In this document: positions 7,086-24,162 of the stretch, piece after piece
How the letters are laid out: each line of letters starts with the position of its first letter
Numbering within the stretch: position 1 is the stretch's first letter
Source of the DNA: a virus
Lineage: Duplodnaviria; Heunggongvirae; Uroviricota; Caudoviricetes
DNA length: 24,162 bases
Reading direction: 5' to 3' (one strand)
Virus record (IMG/VR): IMGVR_UViG_2690316224_000007
The notes under the pieces: generated by a model
Seen by the model: the letters and a program-made list of their open reading frames with translations, nothing else
What the model was told of the DNA's origin: nothing
Database searches by the model: none
Position numbers and translations under genes: made by a program

Positions 7086-7922
7086 TCAGAAGTCAGCCAG
7101 CTGGTCGGAGGCTGCGCCCGTTGCGGTGAACCGGTTCTGCGGATCGCCGTCCTGCGTGCGCAGTTTTTCCTTCAGTGCTGTCAGCTCTGTGGTCAGCGAA
7201 GTGATTTTCTGGCTGTCCTGCTGATGGCGGGTTTCCAGTGCATTAAAACGGTCGATAATATCGGCCTGTGACGTTGCGACACCTTCCACCGCTTCCTGAA
7301 TACGGGAGAAACTGGCGTCATCCGCTTTGCGGCCACGGCCAATAATCCCCATAACGCGGTTAAACCACTGGGTGCCTTCTTCCTGACGTTGTTCGGTGAG
7401 TTCGATAAGTTCTGACTCCATAGCGGCGGTGAACATCGCCACGTCTCCCTGCTGACAGTTGAATGTCATCAGTTGCATACGTTGTTGTGCCGCAAAGGCC
7501 AGACGTTCCGTGCCCAGGCTGGCGGGGGTGTCGGTCATTGCCAGCCCGCGCAGGTAAGGGCCTCCCGTGATGGTTGACTGTGGTTCCAGCTCAATACTGG
7601 AGTAAATTTTTTTACCATCGTTAAGCAGGGACATCATGCGAGCGGTCGGCTCAATTTCGGCATACAGTGCCGTGCGGCCTGCCAGCGGGCCATCGGTTAT
7701 GTCTTCGGTGCTCAACCCCACAACATCGCCCATAGCGGAAAACTCGCTACCGGGGAGTGGTGACAGGATGTGCTCAATATTCACACGTGCACCATAAACG
7801 GACGGGTTATAACTGGTGGCGGCAGCTTTCAGCATGTCGCCGTTGATTTCGCGCCCGTCTGCCGTCACACCGGAGACAGCCACGCGAAACTTTTTGCGGG
7901 ATGTCTTTTTTTCATTAGTCAT
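7086..7922 (-). CDS. O: Capsid scaffolding protein gpO
   Basis: Start chosen at ATG 7922 (MTNEKKTSRKKFRVAVSG), which has an AGAGGGG SD 8 nt upstream; the longer track start at 7955 has no SD. Product has the P2 O-like DPASLGTE block and a coiled-coil C-terminus. Confidence 0.82.
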   Translation of the reverse strand: MTNEKKTSRKKFRVAVSGVTADGREINGDMLKAAATSYNPSVYGARVNIEHILSPLPGSEFSAMGDVVGLSTEDITDGPLAGRTALYAEIEPTARMMSLLNDGKKIYSSIELEPQSTITGGPYLRGLAMTDTPASLGTERLAFAAQQRMQLMTFNCQQGDVAMFTAAMESELIELTEQRQEEGTQWFNRVMGIIGRGRKADDASFSRIQEAVEGVATSQADIIDRFNALETRHQQDSQKITSLTTELTALKEKLRTQDGDPQNRFTATGAASDQLADF

Positions 7923-8076: not shown

Positions 8077-9828
8077 ATGATTCAGGACGCTTTTGTGCGC
8101 CAGCGTGCGCGGCAACTTTACTGGCAGGGTTATCCGCCCGCAGAAATATCACGTCTGATGGGAATAAACCCGAACACGATTTATGCGTGGAAAAAACGCG
8201 ACCAGTGGGATGAAACGCCACCCGTGCAGCGTGTCACGCAGTCCATCGATGCGCGCCTCATCCAGCTTACTGAAAAACAGAATAAAACAGGTGGTGACTT
8301 CAAGGAAATAGACCTGCTGACCCGGCAGCTTAAAAAGCTGCATGATGGCCAGCCGGATGTGATGGCCGCAGGAAAGAAAGGCCGGGCGAAAAAACTCAAA
8401 AATCATTTCACGCCGGAACAGATTGCCGCACTGCGGGAAAAAATCATCAGCAGGCTGGAGTGGCATCAGCGGGGCTGGTTTGACTCCCTGACCCTTTGCA
8501 GGGAAGCCGGGATACGTAACAGGATGATCCTGAAATCCCGACAGATTGGGGCGACCTGGTATTTTGCACAGGAAGCACTGCTGATGGCGCTGCGTGACGA
8601 TGTGGCACAACCTTACCAGCGTAACCAGATTTTTTTGTCTGCGTCGCGTCGTCAGGCGTTCCAGTTTAAAAGCATTATTCAGAAGGCTGCGGCTGAAGTT
8701 GATGTGGAGCTGAAAGGGGGCGATAAAATCATCCTCTCCAACGGCGCAGAGCTGCATTTTCTTGGTACTTCTGCTGCGACGGCACAGTCCTACACGGGCA
8801 ATTTTTATTTTGATGAATTTTTCTGGGTCAGTCGCTTTGCTGAACTGCGCAAGGTGGCTGGCGCTATGGCAACCCTCAGCGGACTGCGGCGCACCTACTT
8901 CTCCACGCCATCCACCGAAACGCACGAGGCATACGCCTACTGGAATGGCGACCGCTGGAACGAGAAAAAGGCCACGCATAAACGCCAGCGTTTTTCTGTG
9001 GACTGGAAAACGCTGCATAACGGGCTTATCTGCCCTGACCGGACGTGGCGGCAAATTGTCACGCTGGAAGATGTGGTTAATCACGGCTGGAAACACACCG
9101 ATATTGACGAAATTCGTGATGAAAACACCGAAGACGAGTTCCGCAATCTCTATATGTGTGAGTTTGTCCGCGAAGGGGAATCGGCATTTAACCTGAATAT
9201 CCTGATTGGCTGCGGTGTTGACGGATACGACGACTGGAAAGACTGGAAACCTTTTGCTCCCCGCCCGATGGGGAATCGTCCGGTATGGATTGGGTATGAC
9301 GCAAACGGCAGCAGTGGAAACGGCGACAGCGGCGCTGTGTCCGTGGTGGTTCCTCCGGCTGTTCCTGGAGGCCGTTTTCGAACGGTGGAGACGCGACGCG
9401 TTCAGGGGCTGGAGTTTGAAGAACAGGCCAGAGTCATTGAAGAGTTCACGTGTCGCTACAACGTGGAACACATCGGCATTGATGTGACGGGCGGGAACGG
9501 GGAGGCTGTTTATCAGATAGTGAAACGGTTTTTCCCTGCTGCTATTCCGTACACCTTCACGCTGTCATCAAAACGGTCGCTGGTACTGAAAATGCTGCAA
9601 ATAATGCGTGCCGGGCGGTGGGAATATGATCGCGCCGAACGCGAGCTGGTCGCAGCCTTTAACGCCGTGCGTAAGGTGAAAACACCGGGCGGCTTTATCA
9701 CTTACGAAACGGACCGTGCGAGGGGGATCAGCCACGGCGACCTTGCGTGGGCAACCATGCTTGCTGTCATTAACGAACCGATTGGCGGCGAAGGGGAAAA
9801 CGAGCGTTTTACGGTTATGGAGTTCTGA
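8077..9828 (+). CDS. P: Terminase ATPase (large) subunit gpP
   Basis: 583-aa ORF, P2 P-sized, with a strong SD; stop overlaps the Q start (TGATG at 9826-9830). Confidence 0.9.
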   Translation: MIQDAFVRQRARQLYWQGYPPAEISRLMGINPNTIYAWKKRDQWDETPPVQRVTQSIDARLIQLTEKQNKTGGDFKEIDLLTRQLKKLHDGQPDVMAAGKKGRAKKLKNHFTPEQIAALREKIISRLEWHQRGWFDSLTLCREAGIRNRMILKSRQIGATWYFAQEALLMALRDDVAQPYQRNQIFLSASRRQAFQFKSIIQKAAAEVDVELKGGDKIILSNGAELHFLGTSAATAQSYTGNFYFDEFFWVSRFAELRKVAGAMATLSGLRRTYFSTPSTETHEAYAYWNGDRWNEKKATHKRQRFSVDWKTLHNGLICPDRTWRQIVTLEDVVNHGWKHTDIDEIRDENTEDEFRNLYMCEFVREGESAFNLNILIGCGVDGYDDWKDWKPFAPRPMGNRPVWIGYDANGSSGNGDSGAVSVVVPPAVPGGRFRTVETRRVQGLEFEEQARVIEEFTCRYNVEHIGIDVTGGNGEAVYQIVKRFFPAAIPYTFTLSSKRSLVLKMLQIMRAGRWEYDRAERELVAAFNAVRKVKTPGGFITYETDRARGISHGDLAWATMLAVINEPIGGEGENERFTVMEF

Positions 9829-11994: not shown

Positions 11995-12306
11995 TTACTC
12001 AGGAAATAACGCCCGGATATTCCCAGCCATCTGGCTGGTTATCTTAGCCACTGGTGCAGACTGTGCTTCAAACTTTTTTGAGCTGATTTGTGTCACAGGT
12101 AATATCTCATCATCAGCCCATGCGGCCAGTCGGTAAGCCTCTGCCGGATTCGTCTTCAGAAGTGCCAGCCCGGCCAGAAAAGCCACGCGTTGGCCGCTTT
12201 TGCGGGCTTCTGGTGTAAGGCTGTCCAGCCAGGCGCATGCTTCTCCTTCGTTCTTGACGGCAGCTGGCTTCAGATAGAAACTTATTCTTCTGGTTGGTGT
12301 CGTCAT
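11995..12306 (-). CDS. parR: ParR/StbB-like centromere-binding protein (ribbon-helix-helix type)
   Basis: 103-aa ORF 4 nt downstream of parM, with an AAGGAG SD in the parM 3' end. Blocks RRISFYLKP, ACAWLDSL..E, RVAFLAGLAL and NIRALFPE align with plasmid R1 ParR as recalled. Confidence 0.65.
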   Translation of the reverse strand: MTTPTRRISFYLKPAAVKNEGEACAWLDSLTPEARKSGQRVAFLAGLALLKTNPAEAYRLAAWADDEILPVTQISSKKFEAQSAPVAKITSQMAGNIRALFPE

Positions 12307-12310
12307 TGGT

Positions 12311-13270
12311 TTACTCCTTGTTCATTGCGTACAGCCCATTAACCAGAGCAAATTGTGGCACCCCGTCCGCGATGAAAGTCGCATTAACTCCGCAGGCTTC
12401 GCGGATAGCGGGTGCCACAATCTCCGCCCCGCCACCGACAACCATCACCCGCCCGTAACCCGAAAAAACCGCCAGAGCGCGGATCACGCGTTGTTTCAGT
12501 GTTTCTTCCTTTTCACGAATAATCGCCATCAGGCTGGCGTAATGCGCGTCATTGTGGATGTGCTGGCGCAACCAGGCTTCATCATGGCGATGTTCGATAA
12601 TGGTATTGGCGATGTGGTGACTGGTGCGCATACCGTTAGTGGCCATCACCGACAGTACGGCATCGGCCATCAGAGAAACGCCTACGTGTGGATCGCAAAA
12701 CACCTGGCTGATACCTGCCAGTTGCCCCTGAACCTTTGCCACATCCAGCGTGGTTCCGCCCAAATCCACAATCAGCAGGGATTCAAACGGACTCATGTCA
12801 GCCAGTGCCTTAAAGCCAGCCGGAATGGATTCAGGCATAACCCGCACGTTACGGATAGTGAATGCTTCGCCGTTCTGGTACTCCACCGGGCGCATAACGT
12901 TCGCTTTTTTGCGGTTGATGTTGGCCATGTCCGGCTGTGCGTTTGTGTCGAAATACTCGCTCAGTGGCAGGGTGACAACCACATCCACCTCCCGTGGCGT
13001 GATGCCTGATTTGACCAGCGCGTGATGAATGGCAATGACATTCACATCGCTGTACTGGTATTGCGTGTCGGTCGTCTGGACAAAGCGATCGCTGACCGGA
13101 TCAAAACCATAGCGCACGCCATCAAGCATGTAGTTCGCGGGCTGCGTGCCACCGAACGGCGCAGACCATTCCGACTTGAAGCTGTTCGGGCTGATGGCGT
13201 TGCGGCGTTCGCCGTTCTCAGTCCATGCCAGCTTGATGTTGGTGGAGCCGTCGTCGATACAAATTCTCAT
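12311..13270 (-). CDS. parM: ParM/StbA actin-like segregation ATPase
   Basis: 319-aa ORF with a near-complete set of ParM blocks matching R1 ParM as recalled: IDDGSTNIKL, SPNSFK, YSDVNV, HHAL, TLPL, RKKAN, FTIRNVRVMPESIPAG, SLLIVDLGGTTLD, GVSL, LKQRV, FSGYGRVMVVGGGAE, LVNGLY. AGGAAAA SD before the ATG. Confidence 0.9.
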   Translation of the reverse strand: MRICIDDGSTNIKLAWTENGERRNAISPNSFKSEWSAPFGGTQPANYMLDGVRYGFDPVSDRFVQTTDTQYQYSDVNVIAIHHALVKSGITPREVDVVVTLPLSEYFDTNAQPDMANINRKKANVMRPVEYQNGEAFTIRNVRVMPESIPAGFKALADMSPFESLLIVDLGGTTLDVAKVQGQLAGISQVFCDPHVGVSLMADAVLSVMATNGMRTSHHIANTIIEHRHDEAWLRQHIHNDAHYASLMAIIREKEETLKQRVIRALAVFSGYGRVMVVGGGAEIVAPAIREACGVNATFIADGVPQFALVNGLYAMNKE

Positions 13271-13301: not shown

Positions 13302-13415
13302 TTTACGGGATTTTTAAATCCCGTTTTCGCCTGTTTTGTGCGCGCTTCATATATCGCGGCGCGTTTTTTGCTCATTTACGGGATTTGTGAATCCCGTTTC
13401 TGTCTGTTTTTTGTT
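13302..13415. repeat. Two ~39-bp direct repeats, each with a palindrome (ACGGGATTTTTAAATCCCGT / ACGGGATTTGTGAATCCCGT), spanning the A stop codon and the parM upstream region
   Basis: Repeat 1 at 13302..13340, repeat 2 at 13377..13415, 75 bp apart; each has CCCGTTTy and CTGTTTT sub-motifs. A TTAATTAAT -10-like element lies between repeat 1 and the parM SD. Confidence 0.5.
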
Positions 13416-16169
13416 TCCACTGGTCAGGCTACCCCGCAGCAGGTCTGCTTTGCGGCGGGCGCGTTCAGTGGTTTCACTGATTCTCTGTGCGTGCTCTGCG
13501 TCACGAATGGCGCGCAGCATGTCAGAAAGCACGGTAACGGGGGTTTTCATGGTGTTCTGGTCCTGCTGAAGTGTGGATGCCAGGCGTGCGGCGGCTTCGG
13601 GGTCTGATGTCCCCAGCTGTTCCAGATAGCTGGCGACCGGGTTATGGCGGATCTCCGTACTGCTTACGCCGTGGTTACGGCTCAGGCGCTGCCAGAGCTG
13701 CGTGATCCGGCTGTCCGGTCGGGTATCCGGTTTGCGTACAATTTCAAATCCCTGCGGTGCAATGTTGCTGCCGTCAACGTACAGACTGCCGCCCCGTAAC
13801 AGGTGCTGCATCTGCTGTTCACCGATATGCAGGCCGAGAGATTCAGCAGACTCCCGCCATTCTTTAGCGAGTAGTTCGTGGTTATCAGGCAAAGGCCGCT
13901 GCTGTTTGCGGCTCTGTGTCCAGCTCTGCATTTCATCACGGCTGTTTTTTGCCTGTTTGTCACGAAGCGAACGCATCAGCGCCCGGCGTTCGTGCCGTTT
14001 CAGTGAGCGCATCCATTCGTTCACTTCAACGCCGTCAGGGAGCTGCGGCCACGGTGCTGGCCGTTCTTCCGGCTGTTCTGTCCCGTTGTTGTCCGTTTCC
14101 TGTACACGGGGACAGTTATTGCCACGAGTCCAAGGGGCGGCAGGGCCGCCCTGAAGGTCAAAACCATTTTCGCGGGCGCTGTCTTCCGCTTCCGGTTTGC
14201 GTCTTACCAGCTTCCAGTTATCCGGATGCGTGCATACGCGGGAAGACTCCCCAATGAGCGGCGACCAGATCCCGTAAATCTGTACACTCTGCTCGCCGTA
14301 ATCGTTCAGCTCATCTGCGAGGTCGTAGGCTGTGCGAATCAGGTAGTCCTTGCGCGGAACAAGTACGCCCCCCTGTTTTTCAATGTAGGTGGCAAAACAT
14401 CCGGCATCAGCGGCAGCGAGTACCGCATCCATTGCGTCATCCTTCAGCCGTTGCGGGCCTTCCGGGTTGCGTGCCATCTGGCTGGCAAGGCGGCGGAGTT
14501 CACGCCACACCTGACGGGAGGGGATGCCAAAGAACTGGAACTGGCGGACCCGGTGAAGGCGCGCCCAGCCGATGGCACGCTCCACGCTCTCGGCCATTGA
14601 TTTACCTGTTTCGTGGTCAACGCGTGGCTTGCCCGTTTTCGGGTCGATGCCATCCACGGCACGGCTGTCCAGGTTTTTCCCGATGTAGGTGGCGATGTAG
14701 CTGGTCGGTGTGCCTTTTGAGCCGTCGACGTACTCCGCTTTAAAACGCGGAGTTATGTCATCGCCCAGCTCGTGACGATCTTCCTGAATGGCAATATCGC
14801 GGGTGTGGGACACAATGGTGTCGATTTCTTCCGGATGAGCAAAGACCATCATATGCCAGTGCACGGTGCCGTCATGGTGAGGCTCCACCGTGCGGATGCC
14901 ATACCAGCGCAGGCCGTCGCGGTTCAGTTTCTTGCGGACCGCCGCAAAAAACGAGTTAACCAGGTAATCGCTGGAGTCGCGCATAGTGGCCCCGTTCCAT
15001 TTGGGATTCGGATGACCGTTCTCCGTTGTTGCGTGGTATTTTGACGGGCAGGTGACAGTCAGAAACACCGCTCTGTCGCCACGGGCTTCGGCCAGAAGTT
15101 CCAGCCCCTTCATGGTGGCCATCATTTCTGCCTTACGGTGAACCGGGTTACTTACTCCCGCGTAATACACCGTCTCGAGATCAATCGTGAACCCGTCTTC
15201 ATTTTCCAGCATGAAACTTTTCAGGAAATCGCGTGTTTTCTCGCGCTGTGCGCGAAACTCGCTTAACGCATCCTGGCTCAGATAGGGCGATGTTTTTCTG
15301 GAAACCAGACAGGCGGCGCGGAGTTGTTCTTCTCTCCACTCGCAACGTAACAGCCACAGTTTGCGTTTCCACCATTCCGCACAGGTCAGGCGAAGGACTG
15401 CGCCCGGCAGCAGCTCCGTGTCCGGTTCGTTCCTCCGGTCTTTATCTGTTGTCAGTGCGTCATAATGTGGAGGCATGATGTGCAGGTGTAACGCCATGCG
15501 GGCCAGCATCTGATACGTCTTCAGCGTTACATCCATGGTCAGTTCGCCATCGGTCGCGCCAAAGCCATCGCAGAGTTTTTCGAAGGTGCTGCTGAACATC
15601 GCCGCCGTCATGGTGGCCAGCGTCTGTATCTGGTGTTTGTTGAGCTGCGGCAGGTAAAGCAAATCGTCCAGGCGTTCGCGTCCGGCAAGGGAGCGATAAC
15701 CCGGTGTCAGCCAGCGTCCGTCAGTGCGATCCAGACGTTCGAATATTTTGCGCAGGGTTCCGCGTGCATAGCGTTCCGCCTGCCAGCTCTTTTTGCCTTT
15801 CCGGCGATCGACTTCCTGTTTTTTGCGCAGGAAGGAGAGGTGGCGAATAAGCGGATCGCGCAGATAGGACGGCAGCAGGCGCAGCGAGGCCATGGCTTCA
15901 TCCACCGTGCCGCGTGCCTGTCTTCTGGCGTCTCCTGCCAGCGTGATGGTTTTGTCCTGTTTTTCCTGTGCGTCCAGGCTTTTATTAATCAGGTTGCCCA
16001 GTGGCGTGGCAGAGAACGCCGCATCAGCCTTTTCCTGTCGGTGCTCGTTCTCTGCCTGGTAGGCATCCAGCCAGGAGGAAAGCGCAGATTCAGGTGCGGG
16101 GATCCCCGTTCCTTCACGCCCCACTGCGTGGCGCGGTTGTTGCCAGTCCCTGATGTACTCTGTCGTCAT
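13347..16169 (-). CDS. A: Replication initiation endonuclease gpA (rolling-circle HUH initiator), 940 aa
   Basis: HUH motif seen as VEPHHDGTVHWHMMVF and the two-tyrosine catalytic motif as TSYIATYIGKN (Y-x3-Y). Position downstream of the small early genes matches P2 A; about 180 aa longer than P2 A at the C-terminus. Confidence 0.88.
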   Translation of the reverse strand: MTTEYIRDWQQPRHAVGREGTGIPAPESALSSWLDAYQAENEHRQEKADAAFSATPLGNLINKSLDAQEKQDKTITLAGDARRQARGTVDEAMASLRLLPSYLRDPLIRHLSFLRKKQEVDRRKGKKSWQAERYARGTLRKIFERLDRTDGRWLTPGYRSLAGRERLDDLLYLPQLNKHQIQTLATMTAAMFSSTFEKLCDGFGATDGELTMDVTLKTYQMLARMALHLHIMPPHYDALTTDKDRRNEPDTELLPGAVLRLTCAEWWKRKLWLLRCEWREEQLRAACLVSRKTSPYLSQDALSEFRAQREKTRDFLKSFMLENEDGFTIDLETVYYAGVSNPVHRKAEMMATMKGLELLAEARGDRAVFLTVTCPSKYHATTENGHPNPKWNGATMRDSSDYLVNSFFAAVRKKLNRDGLRWYGIRTVEPHHDGTVHWHMMVFAHPEEIDTIVSHTRDIAIQEDRHELGDDITPRFKAEYVDGSKGTPTSYIATYIGKNLDSRAVDGIDPKTGKPRVDHETGKSMAESVERAIGWARLHRVRQFQFFGIPSRQVWRELRRLASQMARNPEGPQRLKDDAMDAVLAAADAGCFATYIEKQGGVLVPRKDYLIRTAYDLADELNDYGEQSVQIYGIWSPLIGESSRVCTHPDNWKLVRRKPEAEDSARENGFDLQGGPAAPWTRGNNCPRVQETDNNGTEQPEERPAPWPQLPDGVEVNEWMRSLKRHERRALMRSLRDKQAKNSRDEMQSWTQSRKQQRPLPDNHELLAKEWRESAESLGLHIGEQQMQHLLRGGSLYVDGSNIAPQGFEIVRKPDTRPDSRITQLWQRLSRNHGVSSTEIRHNPVASYLEQLGTSDPEAAARLASTLQQDQNTMKTPVTVLSDMLRAIRDAEHAQRISETTERARRKADLLRGSLTSGNKKQTETGFTNPVNEQKTRRDI

Positions 16170-16175
16170 ACTGAT

Positions 16176-16541
16176 TTACTGCGTCATACCGTTCAGGGTG
16201 TCACGGCAAACGGCAGCCAGCCGCTGAATTTCCAGCACGGTGTCTTCTGTGTCGGCATAGCGATGTGTGATGCGGATGCTGTCGGCAATCACATCGACGA
16301 TTGCAGAGGATGGGCGCTGGTAAATGCCAATAACGGACGGAGTGCCACCTTCAATGCGGTAAAGCCTGTAATTTCCCTCGTGGCTGTCAATCATGTAGCG
16401 ACCATCAATAACAATCTTTCCGTCAGCGAGCTGCGGTACAGGCAGGGATTTCAGGTACATGTCATAACGTTCACGCACGCGAACGGCAAGATCACGCTCT
16501 GTGTTGAGCAGGTATTCAAGAAAGTCGTTGGCGAGAATCAT
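16176..16541 (-). CDS. Hypothetical early protein (121 aa) immediately upstream of A
   Basis: AAGAGGA SD 8 nt upstream of the ATG; stop lies 6 nt before the A start. Present in all three repeat copies with a few amino-acid differences. No recognisable family. Confidence 0.6.
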   Translation of the reverse strand: MILANDFLEYLLNTERDLAVRVRERYDMYLKSLPVPQLADGKIVIDGRYMIDSHEGNYRLYRIEGGTPSVIGIYQRPSSAIVDVIADSIRITHRYADTEDTVLEIQRLAAVCRDTLNGMTQ

Positions 16542-16613
16542 TGCGGCAATCCTCTTGTTACAGATGTGCGAAGGCCTCCCGCCGCAAGGTGCAGGAAAGG
16601 CCCGGAACAGGAA

Positions 16614-16844
16614 TTAATGGAGTTTGTTTTGCTGCTGGATGAGCTGCTGAAGCTCGCGCAGATCATCCGCCAGATAACTGAAAACAGCGGATGAGTAGAG
16701 GTTTGAAAGTTCGCAGCTACGCTCATGCAGCATATTGATGTGCATGATTTTAGCGACGCGGAATGCGCGGGAAAGTCTGCGGTTGATTTCAGTCTGGATG
16801 TGACGACGCTCCGCGATAGCGCGGTGCTGTTTGCGGTTTGCCAT
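16614..16844 (-). CDS. Hypothetical small basic protein (76 aa)
   Basis: AGAGG SD 7 nt upstream of the ATG; basic helical N-terminus (NRKQHRAIAERRHIQTEINRRL); identical in all three copies. Confidence 0.5.
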   Translation of the reverse strand: MANRKQHRAIAERRHIQTEINRRLSRAFRVAKIMHINMLHERSCELSNLYSSAVFSYLADDLRELQQLIQQQNKLH

Positions 16845-17211
16845 GGTGTGGCCTCTTTGGTTGTAAGTTTTGAAAACTCACCATCCAGAGCTGCGAAACT
16901 GTGGGTGGCGAGACGTACGGGGTTCGCAGTACCGGCAACCAAAGAACCCGGCCCGACCGAAGTCGGCCCCGTACGCCCCGCCATAATTCTGACGCGAAAA
17001 AAACGTGGCAATACAGTACGCACAAAAAAACCGCTGGCGCGGTTGTGCGCTTTGGTTGTCAGCAGGCTGCGAAACCCGGCACCCGTTTTATGAGGTGCAG
17101 CGAAAATGTAACCTGACTGATTGCGGCATGGCAAGCGGTTTTTTTGTGAGAACGGCATACTAAAAAATCCTGATACTGCTCCGGCCAGCGGTTTGCACTG
17201 GCCGGGTGTCA
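16845..17211 (-). ncRNA. Structured non-coding spacer between the SPFH gene and the 76-aa gene (candidate terminator cluster or small RNA)
   Basis: Minus-strand reading shows, in order, an 8-bp-stem hairpin CCGGCCAG..CTGGCCGG just after the SPFH stop, a hairpin AACCGC-GCCA-GCGGTT followed by TTTTTTT, a second T7 run, and a CCGAC-UUCG-GUCGG tetraloop hairpin. The only long ORF across it is low-complexity and out of frame with the 76-aa gene. Identical copies at 20135..20501 and 21523..21889. Confidence 0.4.
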
Positions 17212-17636
17212 TTACTTCACGGGAACGAACGGAACAGCGGTGTTACTGGTCATGTATTGCGGCAGCGTGCCGTTCCATTTGTTGATCGCTTCCAGCTCCA
17301 TAACGCCGGGATTCTGGCGCAGAGCTTCGCCGCGTAAACGAATGGCGTCGGCTTCAGCCTGGGCTTTTGTGCGAATGGCATCGGCCTGTCCGGCAGCTTC
17401 TGCGCGCAACATGTTGGCTTCTGCTTCGCGCTGCTTGACTTCCTGTTCGCGTTGCAGGGTTTTCTGGTTTGCCGTGACTTTGGCATTAATGCTGTCGATA
17501 ACGGTTGGCGGGTATTCCGGCTTACCCACATAAGAGAGGCTCATTACCTGAATGCCGATAGGTGTCGTTTCTGCCTGAATGTCTTTAAGTGCTGAATCCA
17601 GCAGTTCAGACTTGCCACCGTCGATAAATTTATCGN
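17212..17636 (-). pseudogene. 3' fragment of the SPFH lipoprotein gene (copy 1), truncated at an N
   Basis: Colinear with 21890..22314 of the full-length gene; coding continuity ends exactly at the ambiguous base at 17637. Confidence 0.65.
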
Positions 17637-17637
17637 G
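17637..17637. other. Single N: probable contig join
   Basis: SPFH-gene sequence lies directly before the N and mid-gene A sequence directly after it, which cannot be one contiguous locus. Confidence 0.8.
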
Positions 17638-19459
17638 TGCGAATCAGGTAGTCTTTGCGTGGAACAAGTACGCCGCCCTGTTTCTCTATGTAGGTGGCAA
17701 AACATCCGGCATCAGCGGCAGCGAGTACCGCATCCATTGCGTCATCCTTCAGCCGTTGCGGGCCTTCCGGGTTGCGTGCCATCTGGCTGGCAAGGCGGCG
17801 GAGTTCACGCCACACCTGACGGGAGGGGATACCAAAGAACTGGAACTGGCGGACACGGTGAAGGCGCGCCCAGCCGATGGCGCGTTCCACGCTCTCGGCC
17901 ATTGATTTTCCGGTTTCGTGGTCAACGCGTGGCTTGCCCGTTTTCGGGTCGATGCCATCTACGGCGCGGCTGTCCAGGTTCTTTCCGATGTAGGTGGCGA
18001 TGTAGCTGGTTGGCGTGCCTTTTGAGCCGTCGACGTACTCCGCCTTAAAGCGTGGGGTAATATCATCACCCAGCTCGTGACGATCTTCCTGAATGGCAAT
18101 ATCGCGGGTGTGGGACACAATGGTGTCGATTTCTTCCGGATGAGCAAAGACCATCATATGCCAGTGCACGGTGCCGTCATGGTGAGGCTCCACCGTGCGG
18201 ATGCCATACCAGCGCAGGCCGTCGCGGTTCAGTTTCTTGCGGACCGCCGCAAAAAACGTGTTAACCAGGTAATCGCTGGAGTCGCGCATGGTGGCCCCGT
18301 TCCATTTGGGATTCGGATGACCGTTCTCTGTTGTGGCGTGGTATTTTGACGGGCAGGTGATGGTCAGAAACACCGCTTTGTCGCCACGGGCTTCGGCCAG
18401 AAGTTCCAGCCCCTTCATGGTGGCCATCATTTCTGCCTTACGGTGAACCGGGTTACTTACTCCCGCGTAATACACTGTCTCGAGATCAATCGTGAACCCG
18501 TCTTCGTTTTCCAGAATGAAACTTTTCAGGAAATCGCGTGTTTTCTCGCGCTGTGCGCGAAACTCGCTTAACGCGTCCTGGCTCAGATAGGGCGATGTTT
18601 TTCTGGAAACCAGACAGGCGGCGCGGAGTTGTTCTTCCCGCCACTCGCAACGTAACAGCCACAGTTTGCGTTTCCACCATTCCGCACAGGTCAGGCGAAG
18701 GATTGCGCCCGGTAACAGTTCCGTATCCGGATCGCTCTTGTTCAGAGCTTCGTAATGTGGCGGCATGGCGTGCAGGTGTAACGCCATGCGGGCCAGCATC
18801 TGATACGCCTTCAGCGTTACATCCATGGTCAGTTCGCCATCGGTCGCGCCAAAGCCATCGCAGAGTTTTTCGAAGGTGCTGCTGAACATCGCCGCCGTCA
18901 TGGTGGCCAGCGTCTGTATCTGGTACTGGTTGAGCTGCGGCAGGTAAAGCAAATCATCCAGGCGTTCGCGTCCGGCAAGGGAGCGATAACCCGGTGTCAG
19001 CCAGCGGTGGTCGGTGCGGTCCAGACGTTCGAATATTTTGCGCAGTGTTCCGCGCGCGTAGCGTTCAGCCTGCCAGCTCTTTTTGCCTTTCCGGCGATCG
19101 GCTTCCTGTTTTTTGCGCAGGAAGGAGAGGTGGCGAATAAGCGGATCGCGCAGATAGGACGGCAGCAGGCGCAGCGAGGCCATGGCTTCATCCACCGCGC
19201 CGCGTGCCTGTTTTCTGGCGTCTCCTGCCAGTGTGATGGTTTTGTCCTGTTTTTCCTGTGCGTCCAGGCTTTTATTAATCAGGTTGCCCAGCGGCGTGGC
19301 GGAGAACGCCGCATCAGCCATTTCCTGGCGGCGCTCGTTCTCTGCCCGGTAGGCATCCAGCCAGGAGGAAAGCGCGGATTCAGGAACGGGGATCCCCGTT
19401 CCTTCACGCCCCACTGCGTGGCGCGGTTGTTGCCAGTCCCTGATGTACTCTGCCGTCAT
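17638..19459 (-). pseudogene. A: gpA copy 2: N-terminal ~607 codons, truncated at the N
   Basis: Colinear with 14340..16169 but with many substitutions and an indel (HYDALTTDKDRRNEPDTELL versus HYEALNKSDPDTELL), i.e. a divergent allele rather than an exact duplicate. Confidence 0.7.
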
Positions 19460-19465
19460 AGTGAT

Positions 19466-19831
19466 TTACTTCGTCATGCCATTCAGGGTGTCGCGGCAGA
19501 CGGCAGCCAGCCGCTGAATTTCCAGCACGGTGTCTTCTGTGTCGGCATGGCGATGTGTGATGCGGATGCTGTCGGCAATCACATCGACGATTGCAGAGGA
19601 TGGGCGCTGGTAAATGCCAATAACGGACGGGGTGCCATCTTCAATGCGGTAAAGCCTGTAATTTCCCTCGTGGCTGTCAATCATGTAGCGACCATCAATA
19701 ACAATCTTTCCGTCAGCGAGCTGCGGTACAGGCAGGGATTTCAGGTACATGTCATAACGTTCACGCACGCGAACGGCAAGATCACGCTCTGTGTTGAGCA
19801 GGTATTCAAGAAAGTCGTTGGCGAGAATCAT
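19466..19831 (-). CDS. 121-aa early protein, copy 2
   Basis: Differs from copy 1 at three residues (G to D, Y to H, terminal Q to K). Confidence 0.55.
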   Translation of the reverse strand: MILANDFLEYLLNTERDLAVRVRERYDMYLKSLPVPQLADGKIVIDGRYMIDSHEGNYRLYRIEDGTPSVIGIYQRPSSAIVDVIADSIRITHRHADTEDTVLEIQRLAAVCRDTLNGMTK

Positions 19832-19903
19832 TGCGGCAATCCTCTTGTTACAGATGTGCGAAGGCCTCCCGCCGCAAGGTGCAGGAAAGGCCCGGAACAG
19901 GAA

Positions 19904-20134
19904 TTAATGGAGTTTGTTTTGCTGCTGGATGAGCTGCTGAAGCTCGCGCAGATCATCCGCCAGATAACTGAAAACAGCGGATGAGTAGAGGTTTGAAAGT
20001 TCGCAGCTACGCTCATGCAGCATATTGATGTGCATGATTTTAGCGACGCGGAATGCGCGGGAAAGTCTGCGGTTGATTTCAGTCTGGATGTGACGACGCT
20101 CCGCGATAGCGCGGTGCTGTTTGCGGTTTGCCAT
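19904..20134 (-). CDS. 76-aa basic protein, copy 2
   Basis: Identical to copy 1. Confidence 0.45.
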   Translation of the reverse strand: MANRKQHRAIAERRHIQTEINRRLSRAFRVAKIMHINMLHERSCELSNLYSSAVFSYLADDLRELQQLIQQQNKLH

Positions 20135-20501
20135 GGTGTGGCCTCTTTGGTTGTAAGTTTTGAAAACTCACCATCCAGAGCTGCGAAACTGTGGGTGGCG
20201 AGACGTACGGGGTTCGCAGTACCGGCAACCAAAGAACCCGGCCCGACCGAAGTCGGCCCCGTACGCCCCGCCATAATTCTGACGCGAAAAAAACGTGGCA
20301 ATACAGTACGCACAAAAAAACCGCTGGCGCGGTTGTGCGCTTTGGTTGTCAGCAGGCTGCGAAACCCGGCACCCGTTTTATGAGGTGCAGCGAAAATGTA
20401 ACCTGACTGATTGCGGCATGGCAAGCGGTTTTTTTGTGAGAACGGCATACTAAAAAATCCTGATACTGCTCCGGCCAGCGGTTTGCACTGGCCGGGTGTC
20501 A

Positions 20502-20768
20502 TTACTTCACGGGAACGAACGGAACAGCGGTGTTACTGGTCATGTATTGCGGCAGCGTGCCGTTCCATTTGTTGATCGCTTCCAGCTCCATAACGCCGGG
20601 ATTCTGGCGCAGAGCTTCGCCGCGTAAACGAATGGCGTCGGCTTCAGCCTGGGCTTTTGTGCGAATGGCATCGGCCTGTCCGGCAGCTTCTGCGCGCAAC
20701 ATGTTGGCTTCTGCTTCGCGCTGCTTGACTTCCTGTTCGCGTTGCAGGGTTTTCTGGTTTGCCGTGAC
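20502..20768 (-). pseudogene. 3' fragment of the SPFH lipoprotein gene (copy 2), truncated at the N run
   Basis: Colinear with 21890..22156; ends at NNNNNN. Confidence 0.65.
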
Positions 20769-20774
20769 NNNNNN
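20769..20774. other. NNNNNN: probable scaffold gap or contig join
   Basis: Flanked by SPFH-internal sequence on the left and the A 5' end on the right. Confidence 0.8.
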
Positions 20775-20847
20775 CGGGGATCCCCGTTCCTTCACGCCCC
20801 ACTGCGTGGCGCGGTTGTTGCCAGTCCCTGATGTACTCTGCCGTCAT
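20775..20847 (-). pseudogene. A: gpA copy 3: first 24 codons only
   Basis: MTAEYIRDWQQPRHAVGREGTGIP then the N run. Confidence 0.65.
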
Positions 20848-20853
20848 AGTGAT

Positions 20854-21219
20854 TTACTTCGTCATGCCATTCAGGGTGTCGCGGCAGACGGCAGCCAGCC
20901 GCTGAATTTCCAGCACGGTGTCTTCTGTGTCGGCATGGCGATGTGTGATGCGGATGCTGTCGGCAATCACATCGACGATTGCAGAGGATGGGCGCTGGTA
21001 AATGCCAATAACGGACGGAGTGCCACCTTCAATGCGGTAAAGCCTGTAATTTCCCTCGTGGCTGTCAATCATGTAGCGACCATCAATAACAATCTTTCCG
21101 TCAGCGAGCTGCGGTACAGGCAGGGATTTCTGGTACATGTCATAACGATCACGCACGCGAGCGGCAAGATCACGTTCTGTGTTGAGCAGGTATTCAAGAA
21201 AGTCGTTGGCGAGAATCAT
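20854..21219 (-). CDS. 121-aa early protein, copy 3
   Basis: A third allele (substitutions in the RVRDRYDMYQKSL segment relative to copies 1 and 2). Confidence 0.55.
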   Translation of the reverse strand: MILANDFLEYLLNTERDLAARVRDRYDMYQKSLPVPQLADGKIVIDGRYMIDSHEGNYRLYRIEGGTPSVIGIYQRPSSAIVDVIADSIRITHRHADTEDTVLEIQRLAAVCRDTLNGMTK

Positions 21220-21291
21220 TGCGGCAATCCTCTTGTTACAGATGTGCGAAGGCCTCCCGCCGCAAGGTGCAGGAAAGGCCCGGAACAGGAA

Positions 21292-21522
21292 TTAATGGAG
21301 TTTGTTTTGCTGCTGGATGAGCTGCTGAAGCTCGCGCAGATCATCCGCCAGATAACTGAAAACAGCGGATGAGTAGAGGTTTGAAAGTTCGCAGCTACGC
21401 TCATGCAGCATATTGATGTGCATGATTTTAGCGACGCGGAATGCGCGGGAAAGTCTGCGGTTGATTTCAGTCTGGATGTGACGACGCTCCGCGATAGCGC
21501 GGTGCTGTTTGCGGTTTGCCAT
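21292..21522 (-). CDS. 76-aa basic protein, copy 3
   Basis: Identical to copies 1 and 2. Confidence 0.45.
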   Translation of the reverse strand: MANRKQHRAIAERRHIQTEINRRLSRAFRVAKIMHINMLHERSCELSNLYSSAVFSYLADDLRELQQLIQQQNKLH

Positions 21523-21889
21523 GGTGTGGCCTCTTTGGTTGTAAGTTTTGAAAACTCACCATCCAGAGCTGCGAAACTGTGGGTGGCGAGACGTACGGGG
21601 TTCGCAGTACCGGCAACCAAAGAACCCGGCCCGACCGAAGTCGGCCCCGTACGCCCCGCCATAATTCTGACGCGAAAAAAACGTGGCAATACAGTACGCA
21701 CAAAAAAACCGCTGGCGCGGTTGTGCGCTTTGGTTGTCAGCAGGCTGCGAAACCCGGCACCCGTTTTATGAGGTGCAGCGAAAATGTAACCTGACTGATT
21801 GCGGCATGGCAAGCGGTTTTTTTGTGAGAACGGCATACTAAAAAATCCTGATACTGCTCCGGCCAGCGGTTTGCACTGGCCGGGTGTCA

Positions 21890-22720
21890 TTACTTCACGG
21901 GAACGAACGGAACAGCGGTGTTACTGGTCATGTATTGCGGCAGCGTGCCGTTCCATTTGTTGATCGCTTCCAGCTCCATAACGCCGGGATTCTGGCGCAG
22001 AGCTTCGCCGCGTAAACGAATGGCGTCGGCTTCAGCCTGGGCTTTTGTGCGAATGGCATCGGCCTGTCCGGCAGCTTCTGCGCGCAACATGTTGGCTTCT
22101 GCTTCGCGCTGCTTGACTTCCTGTTCGCGTTGCAGGGTTTTCTGGTTTGCCGTGACTTTGGCATTAATGCTGTCGATAACGGTTGGCGGGTATTCCGGCT
22201 TACCCACATAAGAGAGGCTCATTACCTGAATGCCGATAGGTGTCGTTTCTGCCTGAATGTCTTTAAGTGCTGAATCCAGCAGTTCAGACTTGCCACCGTC
22301 GATAAATTTATCGGTGGTCATTTTGCTGGCCAGTCGGTTGAGTGCGTCGGCGATCTTCTGGCGCAGGTCAGTGTCGGTAATGTCATCCACGCCTTTGCGG
22401 TAGGTCTGAAACACTGTAGTAACTTTGGATGGATCAACCTTGTAGGCCACACCGATGTGATAGCCGATGGTTGTGCCGTCACTCATCTGAAAGCTGAACG
22501 GCTCATCGTAGGTCTTCATTTGTTTGAAGGTCGGGAAGATGTAAACCTCGGTATTCCAGCCAGTCCAGTAGCGACCAACGCCAACCACTTCGCCAACGCC
22601 TTTGTCGTCGCCCAGCTTGTTGACTTTGATGCCCACATTACCTGGCTCAACGCGATCGCAGCCAACCAGCAGGATGGCGGCAAAAAGCGGGAGAATCTGA
22701 AAGAGTCTGAATTTCTTCAT
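21890..22720 (-). CDS. SPFH/Band-7 (stomatin/prohibitin/HflK-C-like) lipoprotein, predicted periplasmic-face inner-membrane anchored
   Basis: 276-aa ORF with signal peptide and lipobox LLVGC followed by Asp at +2 (C-D-R-V). SPFH-like core and a C-terminal Ala/Glu/Gln/Arg-rich coiled-coil (REQEVKQREAEANMLRAEAAGQADAIRTKAQAEADAIRLRGEAL). ATGA overlap with the upstream membrane-protein gene. Confidence 0.8.
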   Translation of the reverse strand: MKKFRLFQILPLFAAILLVGCDRVEPGNVGIKVNKLGDDKGVGEVVGVGRYWTGWNTEVYIFPTFKQMKTYDEPFSFQMSDGTTIGYHIGVAYKVDPSKVTTVFQTYRKGVDDITDTDLRQKIADALNRLASKMTTDKFIDGGKSELLDSALKDIQAETTPIGIQVMSLSYVGKPEYPPTVIDSINAKVTANQKTLQREQEVKQREAEANMLRAEAAGQADAIRTKAQAEADAIRLRGEALRQNPGVMELEAINKWNGTLPQYMTSNTAVPFVPVK

Positions 22721-22920
22721 TGTTTAATTTCCTTGATGTACTTACTGAAAAGGCGAACAACGCCTGCCGGGTACAACATGGCAATGAAAATGCCCAGCAA
22801 TACCAGGAAGGAGCTGTCTGATGAAATCATTCGGGGGAGTACCCCTACATACAGAATGAGAGAGACGAGGACGCATACCAGCGCCCATGCATATGCACGA
22901 AACCATGTCTTGTTGTTCAT
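22717..22920 (-). CDS. Small two-helix membrane protein (67 aa), translationally coupled to the SPFH gene
   Basis: ATG at 22920 with an AAGGG SD; product MNNKTWFRAYAWALVCVLVSLILYVGVLPRMISSDSSFLVLLGIFIAMLYPAGVVRLFSKYIKEIKQ has two hydrophobic helices. The longer track ORF from 23052 overlaps the upstream gene out of frame. Confidence 0.5.
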   Translation of the reverse strand: MNNKTWFRAYAWALVCVLVSLILYVGVLPRMISSDSSFLVLLGIFIAMLYPAGVVRLFSKYIKEIKQ

Positions 22921-22930
22921 GTTGCGGCCC

Positions 22931-23230
22931 TTACTGGTTAAGGAAAAAATCGAAAACCTTGTCAATGCGTTGCAGCAGCTCTTGTTGTATTGCTTCCGGC
23001 GTTTCCGGTTCGCCTGGCGCCTCCAACGTCGCGCAGAAATCAGCGATTTCATGATGGAGCGTCAGGCGAATGGCAGGAGCCGTGGTTCTGGCGTGCTCCA
23101 GCTCATCCAGCAATGCCAGCGCAGCAGACGGCGAGAGCATTGCGCGAAATGCCAGTAATTTTTGAGGTGTTGCCATTCGTTGCAGGGCAAATGCCAGTTC
23201 GCGTAGCTTCTGGTGGTTGATGGTGCTCAT
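22931..23230 (-). CDS. Hypothetical early protein (99 aa, acidic, helical)
   Basis: ATGA overlap with the upstream gene stop; no family recognised. Confidence 0.5.
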   Translation of the reverse strand: MSTINHQKLRELAFALQRMATPQKLLAFRAMLSPSAALALLDELEHARTTAPAIRLTLHHEIADFCATLEAPGEPETPEAIQQELLQRIDKVFDFFLNQ

Positions 23231-23493
23231 GTTCTGGCTTCCTTCAGTAGCTGGTTAAACATGTGAGTAAGTGGATTGCTACACCCGAACGGCATCGGGT
23301 TTACGTGGTAAGAAGCCTGGCCTCCAGTTTTGCGAGCGCGACCACCTGTGCTGCGGTTTGTTCTGATGACTAAGCCGCCGCGCCAAAGTTGGCGTAACTC
23401 AGCATTAATGGCTGTGGTTGGAGTATTCAGTGCTGCGGCGATCTCTCCGCCGCTACACCCCGGATGAGTAGCGATGTAGTCCAGAATGGTCAT
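23227..23493 (-). CDS. Putative winged-helix DNA-binding protein (88 aa)
   Basis: N-terminal ILDYIATHPGCSGGEIAAALNTPTTAINAELRQLWRGGLV resembles an HTH followed by a wing; ATGA overlap with the upstream gene. Confidence 0.45.
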   Translation of the reverse strand: MTILDYIATHPGCSGGEIAAALNTPTTAINAELRQLWRGGLVIRTNRSTGGRARKTGGQASYHVNPMPFGCSNPLTHMFNQLLKEART

Positions 23494-23693
23494 CTGCGTG
23501 GCTCCTGTACCTGTCGGATAAGGTTTACCCGCGCCACATTAGTGGCGCAGAAGTAAGTGCCGTCAGTGAGGTAGATGTGATGTGCATCCTTTTCCGAACG
23601 ATGTTTGTCGATAGTGGTAATCAGTCGTTCGTCGACCTCGTATTCGCGGTCTCTGGAGGTGAGGCGAACGACAGGAAAATGCTTAATTGCCAT
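23490..23693 (-). CDS. Hypothetical early protein (67 aa)
   Basis: TAATG overlap with the upstream gene; no family recognised. Confidence 0.4.
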   Translation of the reverse strand: MAIKHFPVVRLTSRDREYEVDERLITTIDKHRSEKDAHHIYLTDGTYFCATNVARVNLIRQVQEPRR

Positions 23694-23956
23694 TACACCC
23701 TCTTGGCTTTATGTCTGTATTTGAGCTTTTCTATTTCTTCTTTTTGTTCTTTTAATGTTCTTATGGCTGTGAAAACATTAAAGCCCATAAAATGTGCTCT
23801 GTTCGCTAATGTAATACTGGCACCTTTGTTAGCTATATCATCTTCAATATCAGTGAAATACTGACTGATTTCTTTTAGTGCGGCGCAAAGCTTTGCGAGA
23901 TCTCGCCCCCTGTCAAAATATGCATCCTTCAGTATTTTTTGATTTGTCCTGAGCAT
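23693..23956 (-). CDS. Hypothetical first gene of the early operon (87 aa from ATG 23956; track ORF extends to 24010)
   Basis: GAGG SD 5 nt upstream of ATG 23956, and a TATATATA -10-like element just upstream; AT-rich codon usage unlike the structural genes. Identity (Cox/Apl/CII-like) unknown. Confidence 0.4.
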   Translation of the reverse strand: MLRTNQKILKDAYFDRGRDLAKLCAALKEISQYFTDIEDDIANKGASITLANRAHFMGFNVFTAIRTLKEQKEEIEKLKYRHKAKRV

Positions 23957-24048
23957 GCTAACCTCGTGTTTATATATATGGATACCTCCGCGAGTGCGGA
24001 TTGTTTTCATGTTTTCTTATTTAATCGTGTGTTTTATTTGTGCTGTTA

Positions 24049-24159
24049 TTCTTCAGTGAAAAAACGCTCAATCTTTTTTACTGAATGAATAATTCGCATA
24101 ATCCCAATAGCGCAGGCCACCGAAATAATCAGAACAAGCCATGAGATAAATATACTCAT
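24049..24159 (-). CDS. Possible small hydrophobic peptide (36 aa) at the window edge
   Basis: MSIFISWLVLIISVACAIGIMRIIHSVKKIERFFTEE, one predicted transmembrane helix. The ATG is 3 nt from the window end, so no upstream signal is visible and the ORF may extend further. Confidence 0.2.
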
Positions 24160-24162
24160 GCG

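Follow-up and report, generated by a model that had tools for sequence, protein, structure and literature searches.

In phages P1 and P7, the immI operon comprises the c4 antisense RNA, icd and ant and serves the control of an antirepressor; differences in the a and b specificities are the basis of P1/P7 heteroimmunity (Rfam families RF01695 and RF03163). These RNA families were first described in phages P1 and P4. Here we analyse a 24,162-nucleotide (nt) stretch of Caudoviricetes DNA (IMG/VR record IMGVR_UViG_2690316224_000007; the whole stretch is hereafter called the window), in which a 367-bp spacer separates a gene of the SPFH/Band-7 family from a gene coding for a 76-amino-acid (aa) protein. 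The DNA comes from a P88-like prophage (Xuanwuvirus, Peduoviridae), 94% identical to P88 over 1.5 kb. We consider it very likely that the spacer is an antisense RNA immunity cassette of the P4/P1 type, in which an IsrK RNA is followed by C4.

In satellite phage P4, pairing of the CI RNA with seqA and seqC is established to result in premature termination (PMC4825925; PMC3632133). IsrK and C4 have been equated with P4 seqA and CI, and such cassettes are known in lambdoid prophages (PMC3632133; PMC4825925). In Gifsy-1, IsrK acts in trans and switches on translation of the downstream antirepressor operon. The middle part of this RNA pairs with the downstream RNA, as proven by compensatory mutations; Hfq binding and the existence of short and read-through isoforms were also reported (PMC4825925). 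IsrK and STnc1160, which is encoded just downstream and is an apparent C4 counterpart, are present at high levels in lysogens, where the lytic genes are silent (PMC7067206).

The window was searched with all Rfam families at their curated gathering thresholds. isrK and C4 were found above threshold in each of the three copies of the spacer, always on the minus strand (Table 1). The C4 match spans model positions 1-87 of 87 (E = 3e-16) and folds into a 17-bp closing stem around a UUCG hairpin and a second hairpin with a 12-nt loop. IsrK consists of two hairpins, a single-stranded stretch and an intrinsic terminator. It has a promoter-like and a terminator-like site of its own, both recognised as consensus matches, and C4 begins 35 nt past its end. 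The spacer is thus a standard member of known RNA families, already explained and detectable by a routine Rfam search. A search of the sequence for tRNA and tmRNA found none.

Table 1. Coordinates of the cassette, its recognition sites and the neighbouring features in the window
Feature	Position	Strand	Description
Spacer	16845-17211	minus	367-bp gap from the SPFH stop codon (17214-17212) to the ATG of the 76-aa gene (16844)
Spacer, copy 2	20135-20501	minus	isrK 20388..20314, C4 20278..20191; scaffold duplicate
Spacer, copy 3	21523-21889	minus	isrK 21776..21702, C4 21666..21579; adjoins the sole complete SPFH gene
GC-rich hairpin	17181..17205 (17205-17196 / 17190-17181)	minus	10-bp stem, CCGGCCAGUG-CAAAC-CGCUGGCCGG, just past the SPFH stop; from the fold
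A-tract arm	17135..17148	minus	CACAAAAAAACCGC, just upstream of the -35 hexamer
Promoter-like site	17105..17134	minus	sigma-70-like: -35 TTGCCA (17134-17129), 18-nt spacer, -10 TACATT (17110-17105)
IsrK/seqA-type leader RNA	17024..17098	minus	Rfam RF01394 isrK, 65.9 bits (threshold 50)
a1	17067..17073	minus	UUCGCAG, loop of IsrK hairpin 2; exact complement of a'; decoy of site a
b1	17050..17058	minus	CAACCAAAG, inside IsrK; exact complement of b'; decoy of site b
IsrK intrinsic terminator	17024..17044	minus	AACCGC-GCCA-GCGGUU, then U-tract; stem 17044-17029, U7 17030-17024
C4/CI-type antisense RNA	16901..16988	minus	Rfam RF01695, 87.1 bits (threshold 45)
b'	16936..16945	minus	UCUUUGGUUG, loop of C4 hairpin 2
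a'	16923..16929	minus	CUGCGAA, single-stranded junction of C4
a2	16891..16897	minus	UUCGCAG, downstream target, 3 nt past the C4 end
b2	16863-16854	minus	CAACCAAAGA, overlaps Shine-Dalgarno AAGAGG (16857-16852) of the 76-aa gene; element 16852..16863
224-aa ORF	17212-16538	minus	spans the spacer in a frame other than that of the 76-aa gene
76-aa gene	16614..16844	minus	homologue of P4 epsilon (helper derepression); first gene after C4/a2b2
121-aa gene	16176..16541	minus	phrog_3237, function not assigned; next in the operon
Replication endonuclease gene A	13347..16169	minus	P2 gpA family, PF05840, E = 1e-130; last gene downstream of the cassette
SPFH/Band-7 gene	21890-22720 (full copy); 17245-17639		also upstream of the cassette; PF01145, 2.9e-30

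The exposed segments of C4, b' and a', have complements both upstream, inside IsrK, and downstream, next to the 76-aa gene. Predicted duplex energies are -14.8 kcal/mol for b' with b2 and -12.8 kcal/mol with b1, while a' gives -10.5 kcal/mol with a2 and -12.0 kcal/mol with a1. A distance of 7 nt separates the Shine-Dalgarno sequence overlapped by b2 from the ATG. Each copy of the spacer has three instances of the composite motif TTCGCAG-N(5-35)-CAACCAAAG, namely a1b1, a2b2 and, in complementary form, a'b'; the rest of the 24 kb has none, and the number expected by chance in the window is 0.00.

Viral contigs were scanned with a 14-base C4 core pattern, which gave 120 loci, 59 of them non-redundant. 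The a' and b' sequences differ widely among these 59 loci. Nevertheless, exact complements of at least 7 nt are found at fixed offsets upstream of C4 in 64-69% and downstream of it in 63-76% of the loci, versus only 2-5% after the sites are swapped between loci. The a2 site starts 0-8 nt after C4 in nearly all of the loci, and b2 of the other loci ends in GGA, GGAG or GAGG in nearly every case, 7-9 nt before the start codon. The structures are conserved in the same manner: 16 of the 26 C4 pairs have compensatory (double) changes in a set of 58 sequences, and so do four of the six pairs of IsrK hairpin 1 (16 loci). Three short conserved blocks of C4 are set by the search pattern and are hence uninformative for co-variation.

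The P88-like clade (13 sequences, 84-99.9% identical) provides a view of the same sites at close range. Substitutions in its spacers concentrate in the six recognition sites and change in concert, each change in b' or a' being mirrored at the decoy, the antisense RNA and the target. P88 itself (L001) deviates from the window in both b' (GUUCUGUAGUUG) and a' (UUGUGGAAA), its targets matching each of them, and in two relatives (L053, L090) b' of the window is joined to a' of P88. At least seven b'/a' combinations, apparent recombinants included, occur among these near-identical phages (L001, L053, L090, L025, L051, L060, L064, L040). Changes in the C4 stems of the clade are compensatory, e.g., C9-G80 is replaced by U-A. 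The spacer is 90.7% identical to that of P88, the larger region 94.2%: variability within the spacer peaks at the recognition sites, and the spacer is the most variable part of the region. Such a pattern is expected of an immunity specificity determinant. Because the recognition sites are hypervariable and recombine among phages that are otherwise nearly identical, the immunity type may be set by the spacer, as it is by the equivalent sites in P1/P7.

Much of what the original prediction had noticed in the spacer could be placed on these RNAs. The limits of the gap agree, and the spacer is indeed structured: its minus-strand RNA (386 nt) folds with -149.4 kcal/mol versus -124.5 +/- 5.7 kcal/mol for shuffled sequences (z = -4.4), none of the 100 shuffles being as good. 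The CCGAC-UUCG-GUCGG hairpin was seen correctly; it is located at 16966-16953 and is the first internal hairpin of C4. The hairpin after the SPFH stop exists as well, but its stem has 10 bp, not 8. One of the two proposed hairpin/T7 terminators stands, namely the hairpin with U7, which is IsrK's own terminator and part of the Rfam isrK model. The T7 run at about 17004-16998 has no preceding stem either in the terminator scan or in the fold; the other homopolymer run of the spacer on the minus strand is A7 (17145-17139). The "stacked terminators" come down to a single terminator-like element. Two roles had been offered as alternatives, a terminator with a re-start promoter or a conserved small RNA, and both apply, as the spacer holds a promoter-like site, a terminator and two conserved small RNAs; the covariance-model search proposed at that time recovers isrK and C4. 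What escaped that reading was the membership of the hairpins in two catalogued RNA families, the antisense pairing at the ribosome-binding site of the next gene and the upstream decoy.

Among the closest known systems is the immunity region of P4, whose elements are the PLE promoter, seqA, CI RNA, seqC, kil, epsilon, orf151 and alpha. P4 has a promoter-like site, TTGCCT-18-TATAGT, at the same distance from its isrK match as in the window; we take it to be PLE. The isrK match of P4 (60.8 bits) carries a1 and b1 and is followed by a homologous terminator with the GC hairpin GACGCGCCACGCGTC and T7. Next come a C4 match (74.9 bits) corresponding to the CI RNA, a2, and b2 overlapping an AGGAGG Shine-Dalgarno sequence. 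Past b2, P4 has a 65-aa open reading frame (ORF), presumably kil, and then the epsilon gene; an epsilon-family protein and a replication gene are encoded downstream in the window too. The differences are as follows. P4 is a satellite, whereas the window belongs to a full P2-family phage. The window lacks a counterpart of the P4 65-aa ORF (the putative kil), so that the first gene to follow b2 is the epsilon-like one. Terminator and C4 are about 35 nt apart in the window and about 108 nt apart in P4, the replication gene is a P2-type nickase A instead of the alpha primase, and the a/b specificities are not the same. Given the epsilon-like first gene and the P2-type gpA, the cassette is P4-like but the element is no P4-like satellite.

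With P1/P7 the window shares a C4 whose a' and b' are exposed and which lies between the target pairs a1b1 (upstream) and a2b2 (downstream). In both, b2 coincides with the ribosome-binding site of the first gene, a small one with about 75 codons. Control of an antirepressor would be a further common trait, the antirepressor of the window being putative and proposed by analogy. In contrast to P1/P7, the first gene of the window belongs to the epsilon/"Derepression" family, the upstream a1b1 element has a terminator of its own at its end and so yields a small RNA of the IsrK type, and the Rfam c4-a1b1 score is below threshold. Gifsy-1 resembles the window in the order of its elements: an isrK-family RNA, transcribed from a promoter of its own and ending at a leaky terminator, precedes STnc1160, a processed and stable RNA that is apparently C4-like, and a gene of the antirepressor type follows. 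It differs in being a lambdoid phage and in its downstream gene, which codes for the AnrP antirepressor and is reached via a 45-codon leader ORF (orf45). The published mechanism is activation by a structure switch, and the equivalent ORF of the window has 148 codons and is unconstrained. Gifsy-1 was not retrieved by the consensus-based search; a related Salmonella phage carries the same Rfam pair, isrK and C4. We tried to transfer the Gifsy-1 mutant coordinates onto Salmonella phage 118970_sal3 and gave this up, as the sequence differs and the AUG position alone matched, with a 1-nt offset. At about 70% identity, the cassette is also found upstream of Rha and antirepressor genes in about 140 lambdoid phages, including those converting to Shiga toxin (Stx) production.

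A comparison with P2, 186 and other relatives had been suggested earlier. Searched at a limit as loose as E <= 1, the early regions of P2 and 186 gave neither a C4 nor an isrK match, and hence hold no equivalent spacer to compare; it is P4 that has the same cassette. In P88-like prophages, which reside in many E. coli genomes, a P4-type RNA switch thus precedes gene A and the gene of the epsilon-like protein, a putative antirepressor. As this switch is not present in P2 or 186, it is worth weighing when induction, superinfection immunity and helper-satellite interplay are predicted.

By analogy with these systems, the cassette would operate in the following way. Transcription would start at about 17098 from the constitutive-looking promoter at 17134..17105. 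Most transcripts would end at the intrinsic terminator, yielding an IsrK/seqA-type RNA of about 75 nt with the decoys a1 and b1. In read-through transcripts the C4/CI-type RNA would be present and would probably be excised by RNase P and a 3' nuclease. Its b' (hairpin loop) and a' (junction) could then pair with b2 and a2 immediately downstream, and with b2 overlapping the Shine-Dalgarno sequence such pairing would block translation of the epsilon-like gene. Rho would terminate the untranslated RNA, as in P1 c4-icd-ant and P4 cI-kil. The putative antirepressor gene, the 121-aa gene and gene A would be kept silent in the lysogen, and the same silencing would be imposed on a superinfecting phage of like a/b specificity. 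IsrK, having the same a/b sequences, could titrate C4 and tip the switch.

Mature C4 is probably the 77-nt RNA G16982..A16906, with its ends placed by comparison with P1 C4. It has a U before the first G of the stem and ACC after the stem. An AUG is present at the 5' edge of the C4 stem (16982-16984) and occupies the expected position in 46 of 62 loci (L003-L122). The first AUG of orf45, whose translation was reported in Gifsy-1, coincides with it, and the C4 AUG would also suit the context of RNase P cleavage, with U at -1, G at +1 and the 3' ACC.

Confidence in the immunity cassette comes from family membership, matches to promoter and terminator consensus, two-site complementarity and co-variation across loci, along with the homology to the P4 immunity region and the evidence that the 76-aa frame is under coding constraint. 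What we infer from the described systems is that the RNAs are processed, that polarity depends on Rho, that the 76-aa protein acts as an antirepressor and that the cassette is expressed in the lysogen. Several points weigh against this reading. The cassette is known here from its sequence alone. The score of the window on Rfam c4-a1b1 (RF03163) is 19.6 bits versus the threshold of 46.7, and membership in this family was dropped; at other loci the isrK and c4-a1b1 models overlap on one element, which in the window is covered by the isrK model. The first controlled gene is epsilon-like, not kil or icd, so the physiological output is proposed by analogy. Lytic transcripts from an early promoter must also cross the IsrK terminator and C4. 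Finally, the published model for Gifsy-1 involves alternative folds and translation of orf45 across the C4-like RNA, not free C4 (PMC4825925).

The last point can be developed into an explanation of its own. The read-through RNA could be a self-inhibited mRNA whose IsrK part pairs in cis with a' and b', while short IsrK opens it in trans and a leader ORF starting from the C4 AUG couples ribosomes to the 121-aa gene via ATGA; C4 would then not be a free antisense RNA. Gifsy-1 was shown to work so, including orf45 translation and the pairs G28-C162 and G31-C159 (PMC4825925). These look like a1-a' pairs, as judged from the Rfam consensus sequences, not from the Gifsy-1 sequence. The frequent occurrence of the C4 AUG at its expected position fits as well, and the ORF opened by it ends on the ATGA of the 121-aa gene in the window and 1-16 nt past the downstream start codon in four other loci (L015, L119, L091, L014). 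In the P88-like clade, however, this leader ORF has 148 codons, overlaps the entire 76-aa gene out of frame and is under no coding constraint. Its stop codon is lost in one relative (L053), and at several distant loci it ends within C4. The conserved AUG equally agrees with the RNase P context. We find this mode of action unlikely for the window, although the same a/b pairings operate in both models, which makes it compatible with the antisense cassette. A plain punctuation of the operon, i.e., a terminator for the SPFH module and a re-start promoter for the replication genes with no RNA regulator, agrees with the presence of promoter-like and terminator-like sites in the spacer and with the mobile nature of the SPFH module, shared with Stx phages, which leads one to expect a boundary here. 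Yet the terminator is downstream of the promoter, not upstream, and punctuation leaves unexplained the 88-nt structure with compensatory changes, the three-way a/b co-variation and the sequence-level homology to P4 immunity. Already contradicted by the co-variation of the sites and of the C4 pairs, it has hardly any chance of being correct.

The spacer could also belong to a real protein, either the 224-aa ORF or its 148-codon version starting from the C4 AUG, acting as a regulator of the "Ash family". Several facts favour it. The 224-aa ORF, described before as the only long ORF across the spacer, out of frame with the 76-aa gene, scores 30.1 bits on Pfam PF10554 Phage_ASH (cutoff 26), N-terminal parts of several PHROG "transcriptional regulator" families match the translated isrK-C4-a2b2 locus, and the RefSeq label of this ORF is "ash family protein". 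Its start overlaps the SPFH stop (TAATG), its end overlaps the first codon of the 121-aa gene (ATGA), and it is open in all 13 P88-like sequences. On the other hand, the Ash match is confined to residues 35-126, i.e., to 16834-17110 of the window, which is exactly isrK, C4 and a2b2, and the same is seen at 8329-8521 of another locus (L123). In P4, PF10554 matches the obsolete "cI 137 aa" ORF over the CI RNA; neither the 65-aa ORF (putative Kil) alone nor epsilon is matched, and BLASTP finds no similarity between the P4 "cI" ORF and the 224-aa ORF.

The lack of coding constraint speaks against this protein. In the P88-like clade, the Ash frame has a ratio of nonsynonymous to synonymous polymorphism (pN/pS) of 1.10 within the spacer and 1.36 within the overlap with the 76-aa gene, versus 0.41 in the 76-aa frame. 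Variable sites of the Ash frame are spread as 25/29/24 over the codon positions with no 3-nt periodicity, and those of the 76-aa frame as 24/24/46, with an excess at the third position. No codon periodicity was detected over the 58 C4 sequences either (column entropies 0.98/1.02/0.94). The length of C4 in them varies from 75 to 81 nt in every phase. At distant loci whose C4 is intact, the frame opened by its AUG runs into a stop after 14-39 codons, and the offset to the downstream start codon is 127-141 nt, in all phases. The early distrust of the 224-aa ORF was well founded; it is not conserved as a protein, and its translation as a regulator appears very improbable to us. It looks as if the "Ash" family models as a protein what is in fact an RNA locus, and entries named "Ash domain" or "ash family protein" and N-terminal extensions of Rha and antirepressor proteins appear to be translations of the isrK-C4 locus. 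PF10554 has served as an "epsilon" marker for P4-like satellites (PMC8628076), and the "Ash domain" was described with no assigned function (PMC8951638).

A transcript initiated from the TTGCCA-18-TACATT site would begin exactly where the isrK match begins. Both hexamers are intact in each of the 13 P88-like sequences, while the stretch separating them varies in a single one (L064). Another promoter-like site, TTGCCA-17-AATTAT (17011..16983), was discarded: the start would fall inside the C4 stem, and since neither its -35 hexamer nor the T7 spacer is conserved in the P88-like relatives, we treat it as a chance match. The GC-rich hairpin just past the SPFH stop is limited to the relatives having the SPFH gene and is no canonical intrinsic terminator, because the U-run is 12 nt away.

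Just upstream of the -35 hexamer, the 14-nt arm CACAAAAAAACCGC matches as a perfect complement the 3' half and U-tract of the IsrK terminator (17034-17021, GCGGTTTTTTTGTG). The resulting 14-nt inverted repeat flanks the cassette promoter and IsrK on both sides. In silico, this arm abolishes the terminator hairpin solely in transcripts begun upstream of the cassette promoter. It may be a UP-like element or an antiterminator arm for upstream-started transcripts. The full complement is restricted to the P88-like clade, P4-like loci sharing just an A-tract; we did not adopt the antiterminator idea, and the arm may be a mere UP-like A-tract. More broadly, we offer as a speculation, which as a whole is rather doubtful, that a helper-type P2-family phage took over the immunity/derepression module of satellite P4 (or donated it) as a second layer of immunity. 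C4 would gate the epsilon-like antirepressor and gene A, interchangeable a/b specificities would define heteroimmune lineages, and the arm at 17148-17135 would sequester the IsrK terminator only in upstream-started RNAs, letting early lytic transcripts escape. The view of Pfam "Ash" and RefSeq "ash family protein" as a translated non-coding RNA locus would be a corollary.

The presence of three spacer copies, identical while the neighbouring coding sequence varies, had been read as conservation. This argument has to be withdrawn. The copies are identical beyond the spacer itself: exact matching continues for a further 347-496 nt at one flank and 634-791 nt at the opposite flank. Runs of N (N at 17636, NNNNNN at 20769-20774) lie between the copies, and the scaffold segments so delimited (13347-17635, 17637-20768 and 20775-24162) are overlapping, slightly different pieces of one prophage region comprising gene A, the 121-aa and 76-aa genes, the spacer and the SPFH gene. 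In finished E. coli genomes, the 5.7-kb stretch corresponds to a single 3.3-kb locus, matched as three overlapping pieces and present in one copy each. Because the copies are overlapping pieces joined at runs of N, their identity is not evidence of conservation. The pieces diverge by 3-5% in gene A and therefore may originate from different prophages or strains.

The 76-aa protein matches Pfam PF25738 with 29.5 bits (cutoff 27), P4 epsilon itself scoring 170 bits, and BLASTP with P4 epsilon gives 29% identity (E = 1e-8). Its Pfam match is to the epsilon family and to no Ant family. The 121-aa protein has no BLASTP similarity to P4 orf151. On the other side of the cassette, the SPFH gene has a counterpart of 91-92% identity in phiP27 and many Stx-converting phages, where it carries the annotation "serine protease". 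Being common to Stx-converting phages, it can be considered mobile cargo; several P88-like relatives are devoid of it, and their homology to the window begins only at 17148.

One of the loci found by the C4 pattern, an unrelated viral contig (L003), also has a HEARO RNA (7332-7573, RF02033, 106 bits). The 95-aa ORF at 23577-23864 was considered as an immunity repressor and has neither similarity to P2 C nor a Pfam match; the window seems to end before the prophage repressor gene. Directly 3' of gene A, at 11995-13270 on the minus strand, a ParM (StbA) actin-like segregation protein (E = 1.7e-81) and a StbB/ParR-like protein are encoded. P88 shares this arrangement downstream of gene A, and the occurrence of ParM/StbB genes in a P2-family phage hints at a plasmid-like maintenance option.

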